A stretch of DNA of 64,000 bases from a virus (taxonomy: Duplodnaviria; Heunggongvirae; Uroviricota; Caudoviricetes), in IMG/VR virus record IMGVR_UViG_2531839524_000004, one strand, 5' to 3'. Shown here piece by piece: positions 18,006-63,485 of this stretch (the first letter of the stretch is position 1; each line of letters starts with the position of its first letter). The notes under the pieces are model-generated. The model saw nothing but the letters and a program-made list of their open reading frames with translations, had not been told where the DNA came from and made no database searches. A program made the position numbers and the translations under genes.

Positions 18006-18892
18006 CGGACATCATCATTAAACGCTACCGCCCTGAAGAGTTTCCGCGTCATCTGGACTTTCTGGAGCGAATGACTGTTACAAAGGGAACTGTAGAGGAC
18101 TGGCACGCTCTTAAGTCGCTTCACTACAAAACAGACGGCAAACCTTTCGCGCCAACTTACTATCGCTGCGAACTTGATGACCGTCTGGTGGGCGTCGTGG
18201 TTATGGCTTACCCGAAACTACTGTTGGCACCTCGCCACCGCATGTTTCCTAAGTTGAAACCAACCACTAATACCACCGTGGCTAACCAGTACTGGGGTCG
18301 GTACGTGAATAACAACTTTGCGGTGATCAGTCGCTCAGTTGTGGATACTCAGTATCGTGGCGTAGGCGTCTCTTATCGAATGATTAACCTGGTTAGCAGG
18401 ATGCATGACCGGCCAATCATTGAGATCCAGTCCTCGATGAGCAAATACAATCCCTTCGCCATGAAAGCAGGGTTTAAGTTCATCCGCCCTGAGCGACCGA
18501 AGAGCTATGAAAGTGCACTGCGTGTATTCCAGCGCCATTTTCGTTCCGACCCGGGTGATAACGAGGCGATCGTCAAAGAGTTGTTCGCAATGAGCGAGTC
18601 TCGTCGTCGCCGTGCACTGCGTGATCTGGTGGCGGACTACCATAAGAACAGTTCCCTGGCAAAAGCTGGGCGGAATCGTGGCACGACGATTCAGGACATT
18701 GCCGACAGTCTGGTGGACGAGGCCAGCATTGTGAAGTTGCTCAAGGACATTCACAACCTGAGCTTTACGTCTCCGTTGTATGGGGTGTATCGAAACCCTG
18801 ACTTTGGTCGTCGACTGCCTGACACGCTGCCACTGCTGGCATTCGACAAACAACCTTTGGATAAACCGTTAGAAATTGCTTTACCGGCATAA
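18002..18892 (+). CDS. hypothetical protein, possible GNAT-type acyltransferase fold
   Basis: 296 aa; motif-A-like QYRGVGVSYRMINLV; assignment is weak; start overlaps upstream stop (ATGA). Confidence 0.4.
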   Translation: MTDIIIKRYRPEEFPRHLDFLERMTVTKGTVEDWHALKSLHYKTDGKPFAPTYYRCELDDRLVGVVVMAYPKLLLAPRHRMFPKLKPTTNTTVANQYWGRYVNNNFAVISRSVVDTQYRGVGVSYRMINLVSRMHDRPIIEIQSSMSKYNPFAMKAGFKFIRPERPKSYESALRVFQRHFRSDPGDNEAIVKELFAMSESRRRRALRDLVADYHKNSSLAKAGRNRGTTIQDIADSLVDEASIVKLLKDIHNLSFTSPLYGVYRNPDFGRRLPDTLPLLAFDKQPLDKPLEIALPA

Positions 18893-18901
18893 GGATTTGC
18901 C

Positions 18902-19168
18902 ATGACGTTAACCGATAAACAAAAGGACATCATCAAAACGCTCAATCTCGGTTATGAGCGAGGTCATCTACTTGATCTGGACGAATTGCTTGAAGTTTTG
19001 CCGTACAAGACAACCAAGCAAAGTATCCAGTTCTCAATTCGCGCTCTGATAAAAAAGGGGCTTGTGGAGAAAGGGCATACGCGCCAACGCAGTGACAATC
19101 GCTATCACCGCCGAACTCTTGGGTTAACCACTTTAGGTCGAGCCAAAGCGAAGTTACTGGTGATGTAA
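18902..19168 (+). CDS. hypothetical small protein, possible winged-helix DNA-binding fold
   Basis: ORF track, 88 aa, basic C-terminus; fold assignment is a guess. Confidence 0.35.
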   Translation: MTLTDKQKDIIKTLNLGYERGHLLDLDELLEVLPYKTTKQSIQFSIRALIKKGLVEKGHTRQRSDNRYHRRTLGLTTLGRAKAKLLVM

Positions 19169-19192
19169 TCGGTCTGGGAGCTTATTTAAAGA

Positions 19193-19249
19193 CCTGCTTC
19201 TGTATATATAAATAATAAGTAACTTATTAAATATATATACGGAAGCAGG
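19193..19249. repeat. 57-bp AT-rich palindromic repeat, copy 1
   Basis: cctgcttctgtatatataaataataagtaacttattaaatatatatacggaagcagg; identical copy at 50746-50802. Confidence 0.8.
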
Positions 19250-19286
19250 CTTAATAAGACATGCCCAGACCTAATTAAACAACCCA

Positions 19287-19301
19287 GAAAACAAGTTGGT
19301 T
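19287..19301. promoter_or_regulatory. operator-like palindrome GAAAACAA-G-TTGGTT
   Basis: First of two copies ahead of the small terminase gene. Confidence 0.45.
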
Positions 19302-19312
19302 AGAAAATGCAG

Positions 19313-19328
19313 TAAACAAGTTGTTTTA
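19313..19328. promoter_or_regulatory. operator-like palindrome TAAACAA-G-TTGTTTTA
   Basis: Second copy, about 40 bp upstream of ATG 19367. Confidence 0.5.
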
Positions 19329-19366
19329 GAGCGCATGGACGCGCTCTGTGTGTTTTAGAGGGATCT

Positions 19367-19999
19367 ATGACGGTCGAAAAAGACGAGGTAAAAACTCGCC
19401 TGACACCAGCGGAGTGGGCCGAAGCTGAAGCCAAATGGACGTCAGGCGAATATACACTCTCAAAGCTGGAGGAAGAGTACGGCATTCGTCGTGAAACACT
19501 CTCCAGACATTTCAAAAAGCGAGGATTAGAGAAAGGCGCGGACTCTGTTGGGAAGATGGTTCGTGAGTCTCTTAAATCTGACGCAGAGCTTCGCGCTAAA
19601 GCCCGTGCGGAAAAGATAGAAGAACGTCGTACACGTTATGACGGCTGGGCGTATGCGTTGGGGCAGATGGTGATGGTCGAAGTCACTACGGCCAAACGTG
19701 AGGGTAAGCCTTTAGGGGCGATTGAGGATTCTCTCAAGAGCTTACAGAGAGCCAGTAATACCCTTGCAAAATGCTTTGAAGTTTCGTCCAAAGCATTGGG
19801 CATGGATCATGCGGAAAATGACGAGGAAGAAATTCCGAACCTGGTATTTGGTGAGCTTACGCCTTCCCAGGTGGCGAAATTACGTCAGGAAGACGACGAG
19901 CCTGAAATCATCGATGACGAATTGCTTGAGACGTTGGAAGAAGAAGCTCTAAGCGAATTTGATGCGACAGATGATGGAAGTGAAGGGGAGGACGAATAA
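19367..19999 (+). CDS. terminase small subunit (putative)
   Basis: 210 aa directly upstream of the large terminase; N-terminal HTH-like region and acidic tail; call by position. Confidence 0.6.
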   Translation: MTVEKDEVKTRLTPAEWAEAEAKWTSGEYTLSKLEEEYGIRRETLSRHFKKRGLEKGADSVGKMVRESLKSDAELRAKARAEKIEERRTRYDGWAYALGQMVMVEVTTAKREGKPLGAIEDSLKSLQRASNTLAKCFEVSSKALGMDHAENDEEEIPNLVFGELTPSQVAKLRQEDDEPEIIDDELLETLEEEALSEFDATDDGSEGEDE

Positions 20000-55335: not shown

Positions 55336-55516
55336 TTTTGGATTTTCACAAGATGGTTAGGTGGTTGTGGCTACTCGGTGTAAGGCTTTGTAATCACCGA
55401 TTGGTAAGGTTACTTCAATTTAGCTTAACTGTCAGCATACCCAATCGCCGAAAAGATAAGTAGATGATTACTTATTAGTGTGTAAGAATACTGCCATCTG
55501 TTAGCTAGGAGTTGGT

Positions 55517-58332: not shown

Positions 58333-58531
58333 ACGGGAGAAGGAAACGCTTCATGAAATCAGTAAGTGGCCGGAGTTCCCTGAGTACTGGAAGCCTAAAA
58401 CGCGAGCTAAGTTAGAGCGTTTAGGGTTGGTTGCAAACGTTTCTGAAACGTGGTGTTCGGCCAACTACCAGTTAACTGATAAAGGGAAAGTATTGCTACA
58501 GCAATTAGTAGAATCAGGAGTGTTAAAATGA
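58316..58531 (+). CDS. hypothetical small protein
   Basis: ORF track, 71 aa. Confidence 0.4.
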   Translation: MIVLSKREKETLHEISKWPEFPEYWKPKTRAKLERLGLVANVSETWCSANYQLTDKGKVLLQQLVESGVLK

Positions 58532-58680
58532 TTCCATACATCTCATTAGCTTTTATGGGTGGCTTCCTTATCGGCTTCGGCATCTGTCGTGATTTAATTA
58601 AGCAGGAACTTAAAACCAAAACACTGTGCATCGGAAAGCGTGTGTATCGGGTAGTTCATGAAACAAAGGTGAAAAAATGA
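58528..58680 (+). CDS. small membrane protein (50 aa), paralogue of 58153-58332
   Basis: Own translation MIPYISLAFMGGFLIGFGICRDLIKQELKTKTLCIGKRVYRVVHETKVKK; shares TM plus G(R/K)R.YR.VE.T with the 59-aa protein. Confidence 0.4.
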   Translation: MIPYISLAFMGGFLIGFGICRDLIKQELKTKTLCIGKRVYRVVHETKVKK

Positions 58681-58967
58681 GCAATTTAACTTCTTGGGAA
58701 TGGTGGTTGGCCACCTATTTCTTAGCGGCCGGAGTCGCATTCGCCTTTTACGTAGGTCAGTTAGTCGTAAAACTGTTGCTGATTAAATTTGCTAGTCATA
58801 AACGTATCGATGATGGTCTGTGGCGTCTTGGCACCCTGGTGGAAACTCGCTACGGGCAACTTAAGGAGAACGAAACCATTACTATCCAAGCGAAACGATT
58901 CACTGCCACCATTACAAGAACACCTAGTCGTAGAGTGGCCTTGATCAAAAAAGTCACAACCGAATAA
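58677..58967 (+). CDS. hypothetical membrane protein
   Basis: ORF track, 96 aa; N-terminal TM helix. Confidence 0.4.
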   Translation: MSNLTSWEWWLATYFLAAGVAFAFYVGQLVVKLLLIKFASHKRIDDGLWRLGTLVETRYGQLKENETITIQAKRFTATITRTPSRRVALIKKVTTE

Positions 58968-59172
58968 AAACATATTGATAAGTATTTACTTACTTATCTT
59001 TTGTGTATAAGATGACTTTGTTTTCGTTGAGACGCGACTGTTTGAACTTAAATACAAGTGCAAACGAAGAAGTCTATCTGGCAGTAGCCTAATAAGCCAA
59101 ACACCAGCGAGGTCAGTTTCCAGCCTCGTTACCGAAATGGGACACACTGAGCGAGTGGGATTGCAGAACGCA

Positions 59173-59196
59173 GGAGGGAACATTCATGTTCCCTCC
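59173..59196. repeat. perfect 24-bp palindrome GGAGGGAACATTCATGTTCCCTCC
   Basis: 11-bp arms with 2-nt centre; first of three inverted-repeat structures upstream of the tRNA cluster. Confidence 0.7.
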
Positions 59197-59202
59197 GATG
59201 AA

Positions 59203-59280
59203 GTAACAGAATGGGCGGTTGGTATATTTTCAACTCCATATGACTCCCGGATTCTTAGCCACTGACCGCCCATTCTGTTA
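59203..59280. repeat. long-range inverted repeat AACAGAATGGGCGGT ... ACCGCCCATTCTGTT
   Basis: 15-bp arms separated by about 45 bp. Confidence 0.7.
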
Positions 59281-59745
59281 CGTCATTTTGTTCAATTATG
59301 TCGTTTATACTGGGTTAAAAAGCGGCGACGTAGCCCGGCTGGTATGGTTAGCCAGCACACAACGTTGAGGCCATTACATTTTTATCAATTCTAAGGTTCT
59401 ATTCACAGAGATACCGGCGAGCGTTGATATGTAACATGTTGGGCAAACATTCAATCGGAGTAGTGGCCTCAACGTTGTGAAGACGGGATTGTTGTGTAGG
59501 TTTAACCACTGTTGCCATTGGTGCCTGTTTTCACAACAAATGATTCCATACATCACATTGTATAAATTACAAAGTAGGTGCTGTCCTCAGAAACATCATC
59601 TACTTAAAGATTTTGCCTTCTACTATTGAGCGAAGTCGAAAGCGTCTGGCACTAACGAAAAGTGCAAGTAGCGGTGCGTTTCCTGGCAGAAACTAAACCG
59701 TCGCGATTGGCACTGTTGAGTAATAAATACTGGCAGTGCTGAATT

Positions 59746-59820
59746 GATGGTGTAGCTCAGCGGTAGAGCAGTTGGCTGTTAACCAACTGGTCGGTGGTTC
59801 GAATCCACCCACCATCGCCA
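59746..59820 (+). tRNA. tRNA-Asn (anticodon GTT)
   Basis: Manual cloverleaf: acceptor GATGGTG/CACCATC, D-arm GCTC..GAGC, anticodon loop CTGTTAA, T-loop TTCGAAT, 3' CCA. Confidence 0.8.
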
Positions 59821-59825
59821 ATTTA

Positions 59826-59912
59826 GGGGAGTTAGTCCGTAGAGGTAGCGGTGTAGACTGTAAATCTACTGTCATGGCGACTCGGGTGGTTCGACTCCAT
59901 CACTCCCCACCA
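59826..59912 (+). tRNA. tRNA-Tyr (anticodon GTA), long variable arm
   Basis: Acceptor GGGGAGT/ACTCCCC, anticodon loop CTGTAAA, long variable arm, T-loop TTCGACT, 3' CCA; D-arm non-canonical. Confidence 0.6.
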
Positions 59913-59916
59913 AATT

Positions 59917-59992
59917 GCCGGTTTAGCTCAGTTGGTAGAGCGCCTGCCTTGTAAGCAGGATGTCAGCGGTTCGAGTCCGTTAACCGGCACCA
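59917..59992 (+). tRNA. tRNA-Thr (anticodon TGT)
   Basis: Acceptor GCCGGTT/AACCGGC, D-arm GCTC..GAGC, anticodon loop CTTGTAA, T-loop TTCGAGT, 3' CCA. Confidence 0.8.
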
Positions 59993-60209
59993 ACACAACA
60001 GGAAAGAGCATTGAAACCCGCCGAGACTGCCCTGTTTTAAGCGTAAGTCCGTGCAAACGTCATACAGTGCTCTTTTCGTTGTGGTTGATGCGCAGACTGA
60101 TGCGCGGAAAGAAATGCCCCAGCGACACACGAGGCGAGTTCACACACTGCAATGCAGTCAGTAGCCGGGGTCGCTAAGCCGGAGATCAGTACCGGTAACC
60201 ACAACAATT

Positions 60210-60296
60210 GGAGAGTAGGGAGCATGGTGCTCAAGCGGTCTTGAAAACCGTCCCATTGTGCAAACGATGATGGTTCGATTCCATTACTCTCCGCCA
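60210..60296 (+). tRNA. tRNA-Ser (anticodon TGA), long variable arm
   Basis: Acceptor GGAGAGT/ACTCTCC, anticodon loop CTTGAAA, long variable arm, T-loop TTCGATT, 3' CCA. Confidence 0.65.
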
Positions 60297-60488
60297 GACA
60301 CAGCGTTGAGCGGTTTGGCCTTTTAATCAACTCGATTAAGACTCCGCTAACATAAACCAGACCGCTCAACGCTGTGATAGATAATTACGGCAGACGTTCT
60401 TAACCATAGCTTGCTAACATCCTAGCAACACTTTTTTCAGCGCAAAATTCAAAGGGGCTTCGGCCCCTTTTTTGTTGAACAGTGCAAT

Positions 60489-61751
60489 TTACTTTGCATA
60501 GTCGCCCAATTTTAATATTTCGCGCTTATATTCATTAACCATGCTACTGGATTCAGTATAAATTCGATTTAAAAGATTATCGTTATCTTTATTTTCATTT
60601 ATCTTAATTAGTGCTAATTTATATTCATAGTCATCAAATGCCACAATTAAATGGTGGCCTGGGATTATATCTTCGTCACTCTTAAAGTATATATCTTCAA
60701 GTATGTAATCTAGTTGATTAGATTTTCTTTTCTCGATGTAATCTTCAGCCATAGCTATTACATCATTCCTGTCATTTAACCTGTTTTTTTCGGAAGGCAC
60801 ATCTTCGTAATGTTGCACGATTGAACAACCAATAAGGCGTGGGATGTAAACGTCAAAATGAGTAACTCTATCATTCGCGGTTTTAAGTAGTTCCTCAAAG
60901 TAGTTTCTTACATGTAAAGGCAACTTCTCAAAGTAATCATTAATTATAGGAGAACAAGGAGTTTTATAATTCATAAGAACCGACGGTACGAGCTTTGGGT
61001 GTCGAAACATCCAGTCCCTTTTAACGTCCGATGGAACATAATAACTTTTAATGATATTATCAAAATAATTTATCATTCGAGATTTGAATATTTTGTTGAA
61101 TCTAAGGTTTATGAATGTATCCAGATAAGGCATATTTGAATAAGCATCATCAAAAAATATTTCATCATTGAAAAAATCATATTTATTCAATAAACAACAC
61201 AGTTTTTCCGAATTAATATGTTCACAATAATCGATTTTTAATCCAAAGATAGCAATGATCAACTTCATCTGAGGTGGGATTTTAAAAATTAATTGTGACA
61301 CATACGCTCTTTTTTCCTTGAGACATTCCCCATCAATATAAAATGAACCATCCACATACTCAAATATATTAATAATATGCTTCACATACTGTATTACCTC
61401 ATGCTGTCTTACCAATGGATAATATAGTCTATGTAACTCATCGCTGTTTAAATTAATTTTGTGTTTATCGATAATTTGTTTTGCAAGAAGACATAACTCA
61501 TCATGTTGATTTAATAAGGAATCAAACCATTGTTTAAATGCACTCTTTCGCATTTCGAACAATGATTCAGTTGTTAATTGAAGGGCTGAAAAAGCTGCTT
61601 TTGCACTTTTTCTCGCTTCGTAGGCATTCCATGCTGTTGCTATAAAAGCAAATGCTGTAGCCAATGTTCCAACAGTTTGACCATTTAAAACAACCCAATC
61701 CCAAAAAATGACGGTGAGCAGTAGTATAATAATGAAAATTAAAAAAGGCAT
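60489..61751 (-). CDS. hypothetical AT-rich membrane-anchored protein (cargo gene)
   Basis: ORF track, 420 aa; two N-terminal hydrophobic segments then a large soluble domain; markedly AT-rich versus flanking genes. Confidence 0.6.
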   Translation of the reverse strand: MPFLIFIIILLLTVIFWDWVVLNGQTVGTLATAFAFIATAWNAYEARKSAKAAFSALQLTTESLFEMRKSAFKQWFDSLLNQHDELCLLAKQIIDKHKINLNSDELHRLYYPLVRQHEVIQYVKHIINIFEYVDGSFYIDGECLKEKRAYVSQLIFKIPPQMKLIIAIFGLKIDYCEHINSEKLCCLLNKYDFFNDEIFFDDAYSNMPYLDTFINLRFNKIFKSRMINYFDNIIKSYYVPSDVKRDWMFRHPKLVPSVLMNYKTPCSPIINDYFEKLPLHVRNYFEELLKTANDRVTHFDVYIPRLIGCSIVQHYEDVPSEKNRLNDRNDVIAMAEDYIEKRKSNQLDYILEDIYFKSDEDIIPGHHLIVAFDDYEYKLALIKINENKDNDNLLNRIYTESSSMVNEYKREILKLGDYAK

Positions 61752-61925
61752 GTATGTATTTCACTCTACTAACTATAAAATATTAGGCTAATGTTAACCA
61801 AACAATGCCTTAATTAATAGATTGATCGAGGCTTTAATAGCTTTATAATGCAGACTGTAAAGATAAGTATGCACATACCTATCTTCTTTGTAAGTAAAGT
61901 TGCATATCAATTCTATGAGGTAACA

Positions 61926-62171
61926 ATGACGATCACTATCTACGGACGAGATAACTGCTCATACTGCAAACGTGCGGTCGAGCTGGCGAAGCAACTAAAG
62001 GGACATGGCTACGGTGATTATGAGTACATCGACATCACCACTGCCGGTATCGACAAGGAAAAACTAAGTGAAATTGTTGGTAAACCGGTAGAGACTATCC
62101 CCCAAGTGCTGATCGATGGCCAACCGATTGGCGGATACACAGAACTGGCTGCATACGTCAGCACCCTCTGA
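61926..62171 (+). CDS. glutaredoxin
   Basis: Active site CSYC and C-terminal ...GKPVETIPQVLIDGQPIGGYTEL resemble E. coli GrxA (from memory); start at MTITIYG after RBS GAGG; ORF-track start 61848 is an N-terminal extension. Confidence 0.75.
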   Translation: MTITIYGRDNCSYCKRAVELAKQLKGHGYGDYEYIDITTAGIDKEKLSEIVGKPVETIPQVLIDGQPIGGYTELAAYVSTL

Positions 62172-62180
62172 TTTTAACGG

Positions 62181-62203
62181 CTCACAGGAGCCGTTTTTAT
62201 TCC
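62181..62203 (+). terminator. intrinsic terminator after the glutaredoxin gene
   Basis: acggctc-acag-gagccgt followed by TTTTAT. Confidence 0.6.
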
Positions 62204-62251
62204 CACCAAACTCACTCCCGTTTCCCTTAAAATTCAAAAAACAACGTCAAA

Positions 62252-62282
62252 ATGATTCCATACCTACTATGTATGGAATCAT
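62252..62282. promoter_or_regulatory. perfect inverted repeat ATGATTCCATA-N9-TATGGAATCAT upstream of the integrase
   Basis: 11-bp arms; the half-site AATGATTCCATACA also occurs at 58527-58540 and 59539-59552. Confidence 0.5.
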
Positions 62283-62381
62283 TACTGAAAATGAGTTACT
62301 TTGACTCTTGATCCTATAAGAATCTATGCCTAATATACTGTTTACTTATACAGTGAATCGGCGTAACTCGGTGATTGTCAT

Positions 62382-63485
62382 ATGAAAAATAGCTTTGACA
62401 GAGCACGCGCTGCGGAGAACACCTCAAAAGAGGCGATTGAGTATCTCGAAAGAGCATCTCAAATGCAGGCCGTTATGATCTCGCAGGTTAGCAATGATAT
62501 GAGATTCTCGGACGCATTCATGTTATTTACTCGCTTATCTCTGCTGATAACAAGACGTCGGCCGGAGATCGCTGTTCATTGTATTTTGATACATGTTTTG
62601 CCGCACATTGCTGATGTAAAAGTAAGTGACATTAATAGGTTCATGGTGAACCAACTGGTCAACCCCCTAATACTGGATGGCAAAATTGTTATGGGCCGCC
62701 GCGTTTTCTCTCTGATGAAGCAGTTCCTTAGCTGGTGTGCCTTCCAGGGGATGATCGACGTGTCACCGTTAAACGATATGTCACTAAACAAAGTTGCCGG
62801 TGGCGCAAAGCCCACGCCTCGCGAGCGGAAGCTAACCGACGCAGAGGTATGGGTGTTCTGGAATATATGGGACTACTTCAATGTGTGCGCTGGTACAAAA
62901 TGGGCGGCCAGGCTATGTCTTGTATCCGCAAGACGACCTGACGAAGTACTGCGGGCTAAAAAAAGTGAGTTCAACCTCCAGCGTGGGGTTTGGAATCAAG
63001 GCAAGAGAAACAAATCAGCCCGTGAGCATTCTCTGCCTTTAAGCACATTAATGCGCACATGCATTGAAGAGTTATTCGAATATGGTAAAGGCAGCCAGTG
63101 GCTTGTGCCTTCGAATAAAAAAATCGGGAAAGATCTTCCGATGTCTAAAGTGGCAATAGCCCAGGCATTACGCCGTATCCTGGAACGACCAGAACTGATG
63201 GAGCTTGAGCCATTTACACCACGAGATTTGCGTCGTACTGCGCGTAGTTACTTCCCAGCATTAGGCATAAGCCAGGAGGTATCACGTAAAATCATGAACC
63301 ACAGTCTTGAGGGGATAGATCGGGTCTACGACCGGCACGATTATATGGACGAGATGCGAGACGCCTTAGAAAGTTTCTCGACGTACATCGCATCAATCGT
63401 AGAGCAACCGGATTTAGACGAAATTGACCACAAATTCAAGGGAGATCGTCTATCGACAGAGCTTATTCGTGTAAATTTTTCATAG
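62382..63485 (+). CDS. tyrosine-type site-specific recombinase (integrase)
   Basis: 367 aa; C-terminal catalytic-domain residues in expected order (...TPRDLRRTARS...HS...VYDRHDY...). Confidence 0.85.
   Translation: MKNSFDRARAAENTSKEAIEYLERASQMQAVMISQVSNDMRFSDAFMLFTRLSLLITRRRPEIAVHCILIHVLPHIADVKVSDINRFMVNQLVNPLILDGKIVMGRRVFSLMKQFLSWCAFQGMIDVSPLNDMSLNKVAGGAKPTPRERKLTDAEVWVFWNIWDYFNVCAGTKWAARLCLVSARRPDEVLRAKKSEFNLQRGVWNQGKRNKSAREHSLPLSTLMRTCIEELFEYGKGSQWLVPSNKKIGKDLPMSKVAIAQALRRILERPELMELEPFTPRDLRRTARSYFPALGISQEVSRKIMNHSLEGIDRVYDRHDYMDEMRDALESFSTYIASIVEQPDLDEIDHKFKGDRLSTELIRVNFS

Follow-up and report, generated by a model that had tools for sequence, protein, structure and literature searches.

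The virus record IMGVR_UViG_2531839524_000004 (Caudoviricetes) includes the 64,000-nt stretch of DNA analysed here and referred to throughout as the window, which is an SSU5-like phage-plasmid close to pLF82 and phage Cyrano. Over ~70% of the region of interest, identity is 95–98% both to Escherichia phage Cyrano (pLF82, the plasmid of LF82) and to CMS-2020a. Its local order is a ligase gene, three small open reading frames (ORFs), a stretch of ~780 nt that appears ‘intergenic’, genes for tRNA-Asn, -Tyr, -Thr and -Ser, a 420-aa ORF on the minus strand, a glutaredoxin gene, a palindrome, a tyrosine recombinase gene annotated as an ‘integrase’ (int), and a convergent gene for a helix-turn-helix regulator (Table 1). 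A recurrent motif, the palindrome, and a group of inverted repeats ahead of the tRNA genes had been reported together in the original prediction. They belong to two independent and unrelated systems, a putative DNA site of the recombinase and a structured RNA ahead of the tRNAs, and the inverted repeats are part of the second, more surprising object.

The motif, AATGATTCCATACA, had been placed at three positions, and all three were confirmed: single copies on the plus strand at 58527–58540 and 59539–59552, and a pair in the two arms of the palindrome (62251–62264 on the plus strand, with one mismatch, and 62270–62283 on the minus strand). These are the only four matches with up to two mismatches in the 64 kb, where 0.65 would be expected and four were reached in 1 of 100 shuffles. 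The 11-bp inverted repeat ATGATTCCATA-N9-TATGGAATCAT is likewise exact at 62252–62282, and it is more fully described as two 13-bp arms around a 7-bp spacer, or alternatively as a 16-1-16 arrangement with one mismatch. The complete genome of Cyrano (108 kb) contains just five occurrences of the exact 11-mer core, in two one-armed sites (U1 and U2), in the palindrome, and in a downstream site inside dnaE (D1).

Homologues of the recombinase are carried by 934 plasmids in PLSDB, eight records of which have int twice. These include pMT1 of Yersinia pestis, pHCM2 of Salmonella Typhi, and phage-plasmids of Klebsiella and Enterobacter, as well as non-phage plasmids, including megaplasmids, of Pantoea, Rahnella, and Chimaeribacter. 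A 13-7-13 inverted repeat is found 46–131 bp ahead of the start codon in all eight of the loci first inspected. A search with the DNA pattern alone, TGAYTCCAKAC-N7-GTMTGGARTCA, retrieved 58 genome loci, all from Enterobacterales, and 120 viral loci. An int homologue (45–100% identical) lies 41–149 bp downstream (median 99), in the same orientation, in 178 of 187 loci; for the remaining nine, most of them at locus ends, there was no int match. Among the 58 representative species matched in the genome scan, no palindrome could be established as standing alone with its recombinase gene missing.

The 13-7-13 architecture is shared by the window and all 187 retrieved sites, and the arms fall into two types. 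Type A, (A/G)TGATTCCATAC, occurs with Int proteins that are 56–100% identical, and type B, TGACTCCAGAC, with those that are 45–52% identical. The changes are symmetric in both arms and track the Int clade, which is the pattern of co-evolution between a site and its recombinase. Type-B sites are located on non-phage plasmids, megaplasmids among them, where the recombinase gene is their sole conserved neighbour. The spacer is constant at 7 bp, AT-rich, and has at least 25 variants, some of which are reverse complements of each other (CTATTAA/TTAATAG and CTATAGA/TCTATAG). Across 57 unique SSU5-type sequences, nucleotide diversity is 0–0.02 in the arms, 0.35 in the spacer, and 0.25 in the leader, with spacer positions 2, 5, and 6 conserved. 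The idea of a hyper-variable spacer was rejected: the spacer differs in just 1 of 300 closely related pairs, so it evolves at about the neutral rate. Judged by its anatomy, the palindrome would be a simple crossover site for a tyrosine recombinase.

The Pfam match of the protein is limited to the catalytic (PF00589) and central (PF22022) domains. R185, R285, and Y316 never vary among 34 sequences with identities down to 24%, and conservation is at least 90% for K211 and H307. From this complement of catalytic residues a competent tyrosine recombinase is predicted; within the family, Arg replaces the first His of the HxxR box. Beyond the family (at least 43% identity), the nearest relatives are P4-type integrases with 24–34% identity, and the arm-binding domain PF13356 that these carry is absent from the family. 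The N-terminus is helical in an AlphaFold2 model (predicted local distance difference test, pLDDT, 85.8), and the structures most similar to this model are lambda Int (the top PDB fold match, Foldseek E 6.6e-7), Tn1549 Int, Xer, and IntI, with the recombinase-fold repressors MrpR and SroF also among the fold matches; Cre is a much weaker match (E ~0.04–0.06). A phmmer search of PDB sequences gave zero matches for the recombinase. This absence, the weak fold match to Cre, and the 7-bp spacer place the protein outside the Cre-type family of tyrosine site-specific recombinases. It derives from P4-type integrases, with the arm-binding domain lost and the catalytic residues kept.

All 232 copies of the region in 5,426 complete E. 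coli genomes are plasmid-borne, with none in a chromosome. In a published survey that covered 32,798 assemblies, the phage-plasmid-like regions on chromosomes were of the types P1_1 (five), P1_2 (one), and pKpn (one), with none of the SSU5 type (PMC12977533). The lack of a chromosomal copy, the missing arm-binding domain, the perfectly symmetric arms, and the homologues on non-phage plasmids together favour resolution or cyclisation of the Cre/loxP kind over a phage attachment site (attP), and we infer that the palindrome is best read as a Cre/loxP-like resolution site of a plasmid-borne phage. The motif would be a half-site bound by the recombinase encoded just downstream, with one monomer on each arm. 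Two such sites would synapse and exchange strands across the asymmetric, AT-rich 7-bp spacer, as in Cre/loxP of phage P1. Recombination would resolve multimeric plasmids to monomers, with circularisation or multimerisation of phage DNA as further possible outcomes, and binding of Int at the palindrome may in addition autoregulate int.

The predicted int promoter is the best-conserved block of the leader (diversity 0.09–0.13); its score in the promoter scan is under the cut-off, so its call is an inference from sequence. Overlapping its −10 element and the start region of int is a sequence resembling a LexA box, with one mismatch to TACTGT-N8-ACAGTA, at which LexA binding is predicted. The CTGT-N8-ACAG pattern is present at 96 of 120 type-A loci compared with 0 of 57 type-B loci, and in the phage-plasmids the box is situated between the palindrome and int. 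Cyrano was induced 39-fold by ciprofloxacin (PMC9928086), which together with the conserved box suggests that int is probably SOS-induced in phage-plasmids. The int gene of SSU5-type phage-plasmids would be under LexA control and become de-repressed upon SOS induction of the phage. As a speculation, SOS-induced int may serve resolution under high recombination, or the production of packageable multimers. A second, perfect LexA-box-like sequence, TACTGTATGTGTATACAGTA, is found at 1334–1353, far from the region studied. In K. pneumoniae p187-1 (locus L190, ~18064–19975) a group II intron (ltrA) separates int from its promoter, having inserted right behind the LexA-box palindrome.

One-armed copies of the motif accompany type-A sites. 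In 120 type-A loci, 68 copies upstream of the core are all on the plus strand and 92 copies downstream are all on the minus strand, and every one extends to TGATTCCATACAT(C); none was found in 56 type-B loci. They lie inside genes, 0.7–7 kb from the core. One of them, D0 within int, is decayed in the window and intact as TTGATTCCATACAT in most other lineages. All 160 copies agree in polarity; since they collapse to ~4 orthologous positions, the inward polarity is only suggestive, and its use as strong evidence was abandoned. The conservation of D1 was measured on an unbiased sample of dnaE (27 unique sequences) that was not chosen by motif. The motif is kept in 24 of the 27, and third codon positions are invariant within it compared with a diversity of 0.43–0.72 in neighbouring codons, which points to selection on the DNA itself. 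The one-armed copies are most simply read as putative extra recombinase-binding sites, accessory or regulatory. Candidate roles are accessory or regulatory binding of Int, one-armed sites like those of Rci, or barriers. Inversion between upstream and downstream copies was considered and discarded, with no inverted arrangement in ~120 loci; U1 and D1 of Cyrano are alike in the arm and the next 7 nt (ATCTCAT), and this is not so in other lineages. A role for the motif as a −35 element or phage-specific promoter was also rejected, with spacing to −10-like hexamers that is inconsistent and two copies that are antisense within genes.

The ~780-nt stretch ahead of the tRNA genes is 70–95% identical across lineages. 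Its RNA structure was assessed on an alignment of 13 sequences, with controls in which pairing partners were slid. The consensus structure pairs 97.7% of cells, compared with 33–46% in the slid controls; 23 pairs are changed on both sides, compared with 1–8, and many strand-specific G-U pairs are present. Because of these compensatory changes and strand-specific G-U pairs, the inverted repeats at 59173–59480 are identified as helices of a transcribed, structured RNA rather than as DNA sites for proteins. The three repeats described originally correspond to helices 8, 9, and 12 of the consensus. Each exists, with corrections to its dimensions: the supposedly perfect 24-bp palindrome is an 11+2+11 repeat whose central TC is not self-complementary; the repeat credited with 15-bp arms has the 45-nt spacing reported, but its arms are 22 nt (59198–59219 and 59265–59286, 95% complementary); and the ACAACGTTGAGGCCA repeat has 20-nt arms (59358–59377 and 59460–59479) that are 82 nt apart. 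The suggestion that such repeats bind a recombinase is well supported for the palindrome, which tracks recombinase homologues of 45–100% identity with symmetric covariation of its arms, and fails for the three on the tRNA side.

The core of the structured RNA spans 59018–59365 and extends up to 59745, with a start-less reading frame inside its 5′ part. This frame reads ANEEVYLAVA and resembles the tag frame of transfer-messenger RNA (tmRNA, SsrA). No start codon is conserved for it, and indels occur immediately upstream, never inside. Many other viral contigs proved to contain the same frame in a pattern scan, and with BLAST it was located in 341 phage records, nearly all unannotated there. 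Carriers of the module include HK620 (between pR′/qut and tR′), Kuttervirus, Gamaleyavirus, Deseoctovirus, and Klebsiella siphoviruses. Across 23 unique versions from several phage families, all of which keep the frame and its stop codon, third codon positions are the most diverse (0.365, compared with 0.158 at first and 0.143 at second positions). The peptide ANDNQYLAVA is encoded by seven different nucleotide versions, and synonymous changes include GCA/GCT, AAC/AAT, TAT/TAC, and GCC/GCT/GCG/GCA. This periodicity and these synonymous variants are those of a start-less frame that opens at an Ala codon and is under selection at the peptide level, as in tmRNA; the helices around the tag covary. 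An alternative frame, MQTKK..WQ followed by a stop and read from AUG/GUG/CUG, was rejected, with a start that is not conserved and a frame destroyed by synonymous changes in Se-G.

Table 1. Coordinates in the window of the features of the recombinase locus and of the structured RNA.
Feature	Position	Strand	Description
One-armed site U1, ATGATTCCATACATC	58528–58542	+	Overlaps the stop of a 71-aa ORF and the start codon (MIPYI) of a 50-aa ORF
Operator-like palindrome GATAAGTAtttacTTACTTATC with −10-like TATAAGAT	58977–59015	+	Probable promoter of the tag RNA/tRNA operon
Start-codon-less tag frame	59060–59095	+	GCA AAC GAA GAA GTC TAT CTG GCA GTA GCC TAA TAA (ANEEVYLAVA and two stops)
Post-tag hairpin	59107–59129	+	GCGAGGU...GCCUCGU; like tmRNA helix 5; covaries in distant lineages
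RNA helix (24-bp palindrome)	59173–59196	+	Helix 8; compensatory changes in 6/8 pairs
RNA helix, ~25 bp	59198–59286	+	Helix 9; 99% of cells paired, compensatory and G-U changes
RNA helix CACAACGUUGAGGCC.../...GGCCUCAACGUUGUG	59358–59479	+	Helices 12 and 14
One-armed site U2, ATGATTCCATACATC	59540–59554	+	Within the structured RNA gene; invariant in 13/13 aligned lineages
tRNA cluster	59746–60296	+	Asn, Tyr, Thr, Ser
Putative recombinase core site, 33 bp	62251–62283	none	Arm AATGATTCCATAC 62251–62263, spacer CTACTAT 62264–62270, arm GTATGGAATCATT 62271–62283
Predicted int promoter	62308–62336	+	TTGATC (62308–62313), 17-nt spacer, TAATAT (62331–62336)
LexA-box-like TACTGTTTACTTATACAGTG	62336–62355	none	CTGT-N8-ACAG; overlaps the −10 element and the int start region
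Tyrosine recombinase (‘integrase’), 367 aa	62382–63485	+	Pfam PF00589 and PF22022, no arm-binding domain
Decayed one-armed site D0, TTGATTCCAAAC	62988–62999	−	Inside int; coordinates transferred from Cyrano locus L001

Taking the two systems together, we consider it reasonably probable that the motif and palindrome are a Cre/loxP-like site of the adjoining recombinase, and that the repeats at 59173–59480 are helices of an RNA with an SsrA-like tag frame. The 5′ part of this RNA would carry a translated frame, presumably entered without a start codon. A more far-reaching version, which we put forward tentatively and hold to be possible at somewhat below even chance, is that the RNA represents a widespread but unannotated family of phage ‘tag RNAs’, and that the one-armed sites provide a second, non-recombinational form of control by the recombinase after SOS. 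Each tag RNA would be a tmRNA-like messenger module, with a start-less frame, a hairpin, a pseudoknot, and no tRNA-like domain in cis, and with tag variants such as ANEEVYLAVA, ANDNQYLAVA, ANDDVVLMAA, and others. On this version, the family would re-program the tags added on stalled ribosomes, via a partner RNA or the host tmRNA-SmpB, one example being the replacement of the host ClpXP degron ...LAA by ...AVA.

A point against a tmRNA-like function is that no tRNA-like domain was detected, whether with ARAGORN (default and relaxed thresholds, 70–100%), with Rfam, by folding either end of the RNA with alifold, or by eye. A T-arm-like hairpin at 59649–59665 was rejected for the role, having the wrong loop and no G3:U70. 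Rfam tmRNA models align with the tag segment and the following hairpin only, at 14–23 bits, far below their gathering scores of 47–84, and similar hairpin modules flank tRNAs in other phages. These observations fit a resemblance that arose by chance or as a relic, for example a captured ssrA fragment, in an RNA that acts only as a processing scaffold for the tRNA operon. We regard this as rather unlikely: frame and stop are preserved across the 23 versions, changes are synonymous with a 3-nt periodicity of diversity, and indels are confined to the sequence directly upstream of the frame.

Several observations touch on the distribution and possible partners of the tag RNA. The variant ANDDVVLMAA in two SSU5-like loci (L080 and L154) is identical to that of Gamaleyavirus St11Ph5 (L278) and Deseoctovirus C1 (L279), which suggests horizontal exchange of the module. 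Some ~110–150 nt upstream of the tag RNA there is a predicted tRNA-Ala(cgc) in St11Ph5 (L278, 520–591), while SenALZ1 has a tRNA-like element there that was not called and whose T-arm is GGTTCGATTCC (L277, ~485–555); either could be a partner acceptor RNA.

The promoter of the tRNAs, originally placed among the inverted repeats, is probably upstream of them, and the structured RNA would be transcribed together with the tRNAs from this operator-controlled promoter (~58977–59015). Its palindrome belongs to a motif, ATARGTA-N6-TACYTAT, with 14 occurrences in the window against 0.35 expected. The motif is found at 58978–58997, 61863–61882, 55456–55475, and 11 further places, at or near promoters, and is probably the operator of the phage-plasmid repressor or else a phage-specific promoter element. 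Cyrano has just tRNA-Asn, -Thr, and -Ser, tightly packed; the window has in addition a tRNA-Tyr gene (59826–59912) and a 217-nt hairpin-bearing spacer before tRNA-Ser. Long hairpins of the form CACA(A/G)C...G(U/C)UGUG bracket the tRNAs (59358–59479, 59987–60091, and 60299–60376), as does a leader element, GCCGGAGAUCAG..CCGG (60160–60200). In phages unrelated to this one, tRNAs and the tag RNA are likewise flanked by such hairpin and leader modules, which may be processing cassettes of the RNase III type.

For the palindrome, the strongest competitor to a crossover site is a site used only as an operator. The palindrome and its outlying copies would then be bound by a recombinase-fold protein that acts as a regulator, like MrpR of SPbeta, or by some other regulator, and no recombination would take place. 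A pure operator would also account for a symmetric site ahead of a gene; in clades with short leaders it abuts the −35 region, and one-armed copies scattered over 10 kb resemble regulatory sites. Repressors with the recombinase fold are, as noted above, among the structural matches. Other observations also weigh against recombination at the palindrome. No recombination product was found, and no locus has a deletion, inversion, or fusion junction inside the spacer; nor did any direct scar of recombination turn up. The mosaic boundary beside the site lies ~30 bp to its left rather than within the spacer. An apparent scar at the left arm, seen as a break in BLAST homology, was dismissed since the true break follows a conserved A-tract ~30 bp more to the left. 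In p187-1, the one large cointegrate examined, the join is to a resistance region rich in insertion sequences and transposons 8.5 kb upstream of int, with a single palindrome in the 41 kb read, and this junction led us to reject it as a case of site-specific fusion. The inward polarity of the extra copies, counted over the ~4 orthologous positions, corresponds to p ~0.125, and LexA control is unusual for a housekeeping resolvase.

An operator alone is nevertheless unlikely in our view. Homologues down to 43% identity keep every catalytic residue, the nucleophilic Tyr among them. The spacer resembles crossover regions in being AT-rich and never other than 7 bp, and the site in type-B plasmids has the recombinase gene as its one conserved neighbour. 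Autoregulation and recombination can coexist.

The possibility that the palindrome is the core of an attP, at which the enzyme would integrate the element into the host chromosome, is considerably more remote. The gene is annotated as an ‘integrase’ with P4-type integrases as its nearest relatives, attP normally adjoins int, and a 7-bp overlap is typical of lambda-type integrases, which counts in its favour. However, the arm-binding domain is absent and the core lacks flanking arm-type sites; the extra copies of the motif are of core type and kilobases distant; and most attP cores do not have the perfect symmetry of these arms. Close relatives with common hosts can have different spacers, and homologues with the same site are found on non-phage plasmids, some of them megaplasmids. 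Neither of the features expected of P4/lambda-type integration, an arm-binding domain with arm sites and an integrated element with attL/attR, was found. With every E. coli copy plasmid-borne and the SSU5 type missing from the chromosomal regions surveyed (PMC12977533), the proposed attachment-site region is unsupported. It is hardly credible that the region marks an origin of replication or a terminus at which forks are trapped in a polar manner: the repeats do cluster within 4 kb and the one-armed copies point inwards like Ter sites around dif, but repA and its region are ~20 kb away in Cyrano, the cumulative GC skew is monotonic and uninformative, with no turning point there, the G-U pairs identify the inverted repeats as helices of an RNA, and the polarity comes from ~4 sites.

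The AT-rich 420-aa ORF (60489–61751, minus strand; phrog_18168) had no match in Pfam, NCBIfam, or PADLOC, and its absence from the same position in Cyrano suggests that it is probably accessory cargo. A hot spot for cargo lies directly to the left of 62251, beyond a conserved TTCAAAAAA tract. Examples of its content are the caf1R-caf1M-caf1A-caf1 operon for the F1 capsule in Y. pestis pMT1 (L003, 113–5241), the highly expressed moron CYRAN_43 in Cyrano (L001, 5995–6549), and a YafO toxin in Enterobacter (L005, 5411–5827). A literature search on the motif, the site, and tmRNA-like phage RNA found nothing relevant.

If the palindrome is a resolution site, an ‘integrase’ present on 934 PLSDB plasmids (among them pMT1 and pHCM2, and also pLF82 of E. 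coli) gains a concrete and testable function, which would explain its presence on elements that were never found integrated here. The locus would provide a candidate pair of recombinase and target with a 13-7-13 site, two natural specificities, and many natural spacers. An enzyme of the lambda/P4 lineage that apparently needs no arm sites could become a tool for genome engineering that is orthogonal to Cre-type enzymes. The tag RNA, if true, would be a new form of phage interference with ribosome rescue and protein tagging, and a new RNA family in phages of at least five taxonomic groups.

Among known systems, the palindrome and recombinase most resemble Cre/loxP of P1 and its relatives (Dre/rox, VCre, Vika, Nigri, and Panto). 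They share a single tyrosine recombinase that needs no arm sites, a plasmid prophage on which the target adjoins the recombinase gene and consists of 13-bp arms flanking a short, asymmetric spacer, and an expected role in multimer resolution or cyclisation. In contrast, the spacer here is 7 bp rather than the 8 bp of Cre systems, and the protein is not of the Cre type. To our knowledge, neither LexA control nor outlying one-armed copies are features of Cre/loxP. Published pipelines for the discovery of Cre-type systems restricted their search to 13-8-13 sites (PMC4957104, PMC10250229). The P4-type (CP4-57-like) integrases have the same central and catalytic domains, but they possess PF13356 and integrate into chromosomal genes, whereas the family described here is plasmid-borne and has a short helical N-terminus instead. 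In the TnpI/IRS systems of Tn4430 and Tn5401, the recombinase-binding motif is present in an inverted-repeat core and again as single copies, which are within ~100 bp of the core or at the transposon ends. Functional sites with one conserved arm only are known from Rci/sfx of the R64 shufflon. The extra copies here differ from both in being 0.7–7 kb away in genes, with no inversion or deletion variants in ~120 loci. We take the motif to identify a new lox-like system of the P4/lambda lineage, with unusual extra sites and a function predicted from sequence.

The structured RNA, in turn, is most like tmRNA, two-piece forms included. Both have a start-less frame that begins with GCA (Ala) and encodes a hydrophobic C-terminus followed by a stop (ANDENYALAA in E. 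coli, compared with ANDNQYLAVA and ANEEVYLAVA), and in both the frame stands between a structured element and a hairpin that follows it. In a census from 2014, the only phages with ssrA were mycobacteriophages and Bacillus phage G, and plasmids had none; a partial tmRNA carried by a phage has a precedent in mycobacteriophage DS6A, in which only the tRNA-like domain is present (PMC4131195). Unlike tmRNA, the RNA described here has no detected acceptor/T-arm domain, is located within phage tRNA operons or, in HK620, in the pR′-tR′ leader, and encodes tags that end in AVA or MAA rather than LAA.

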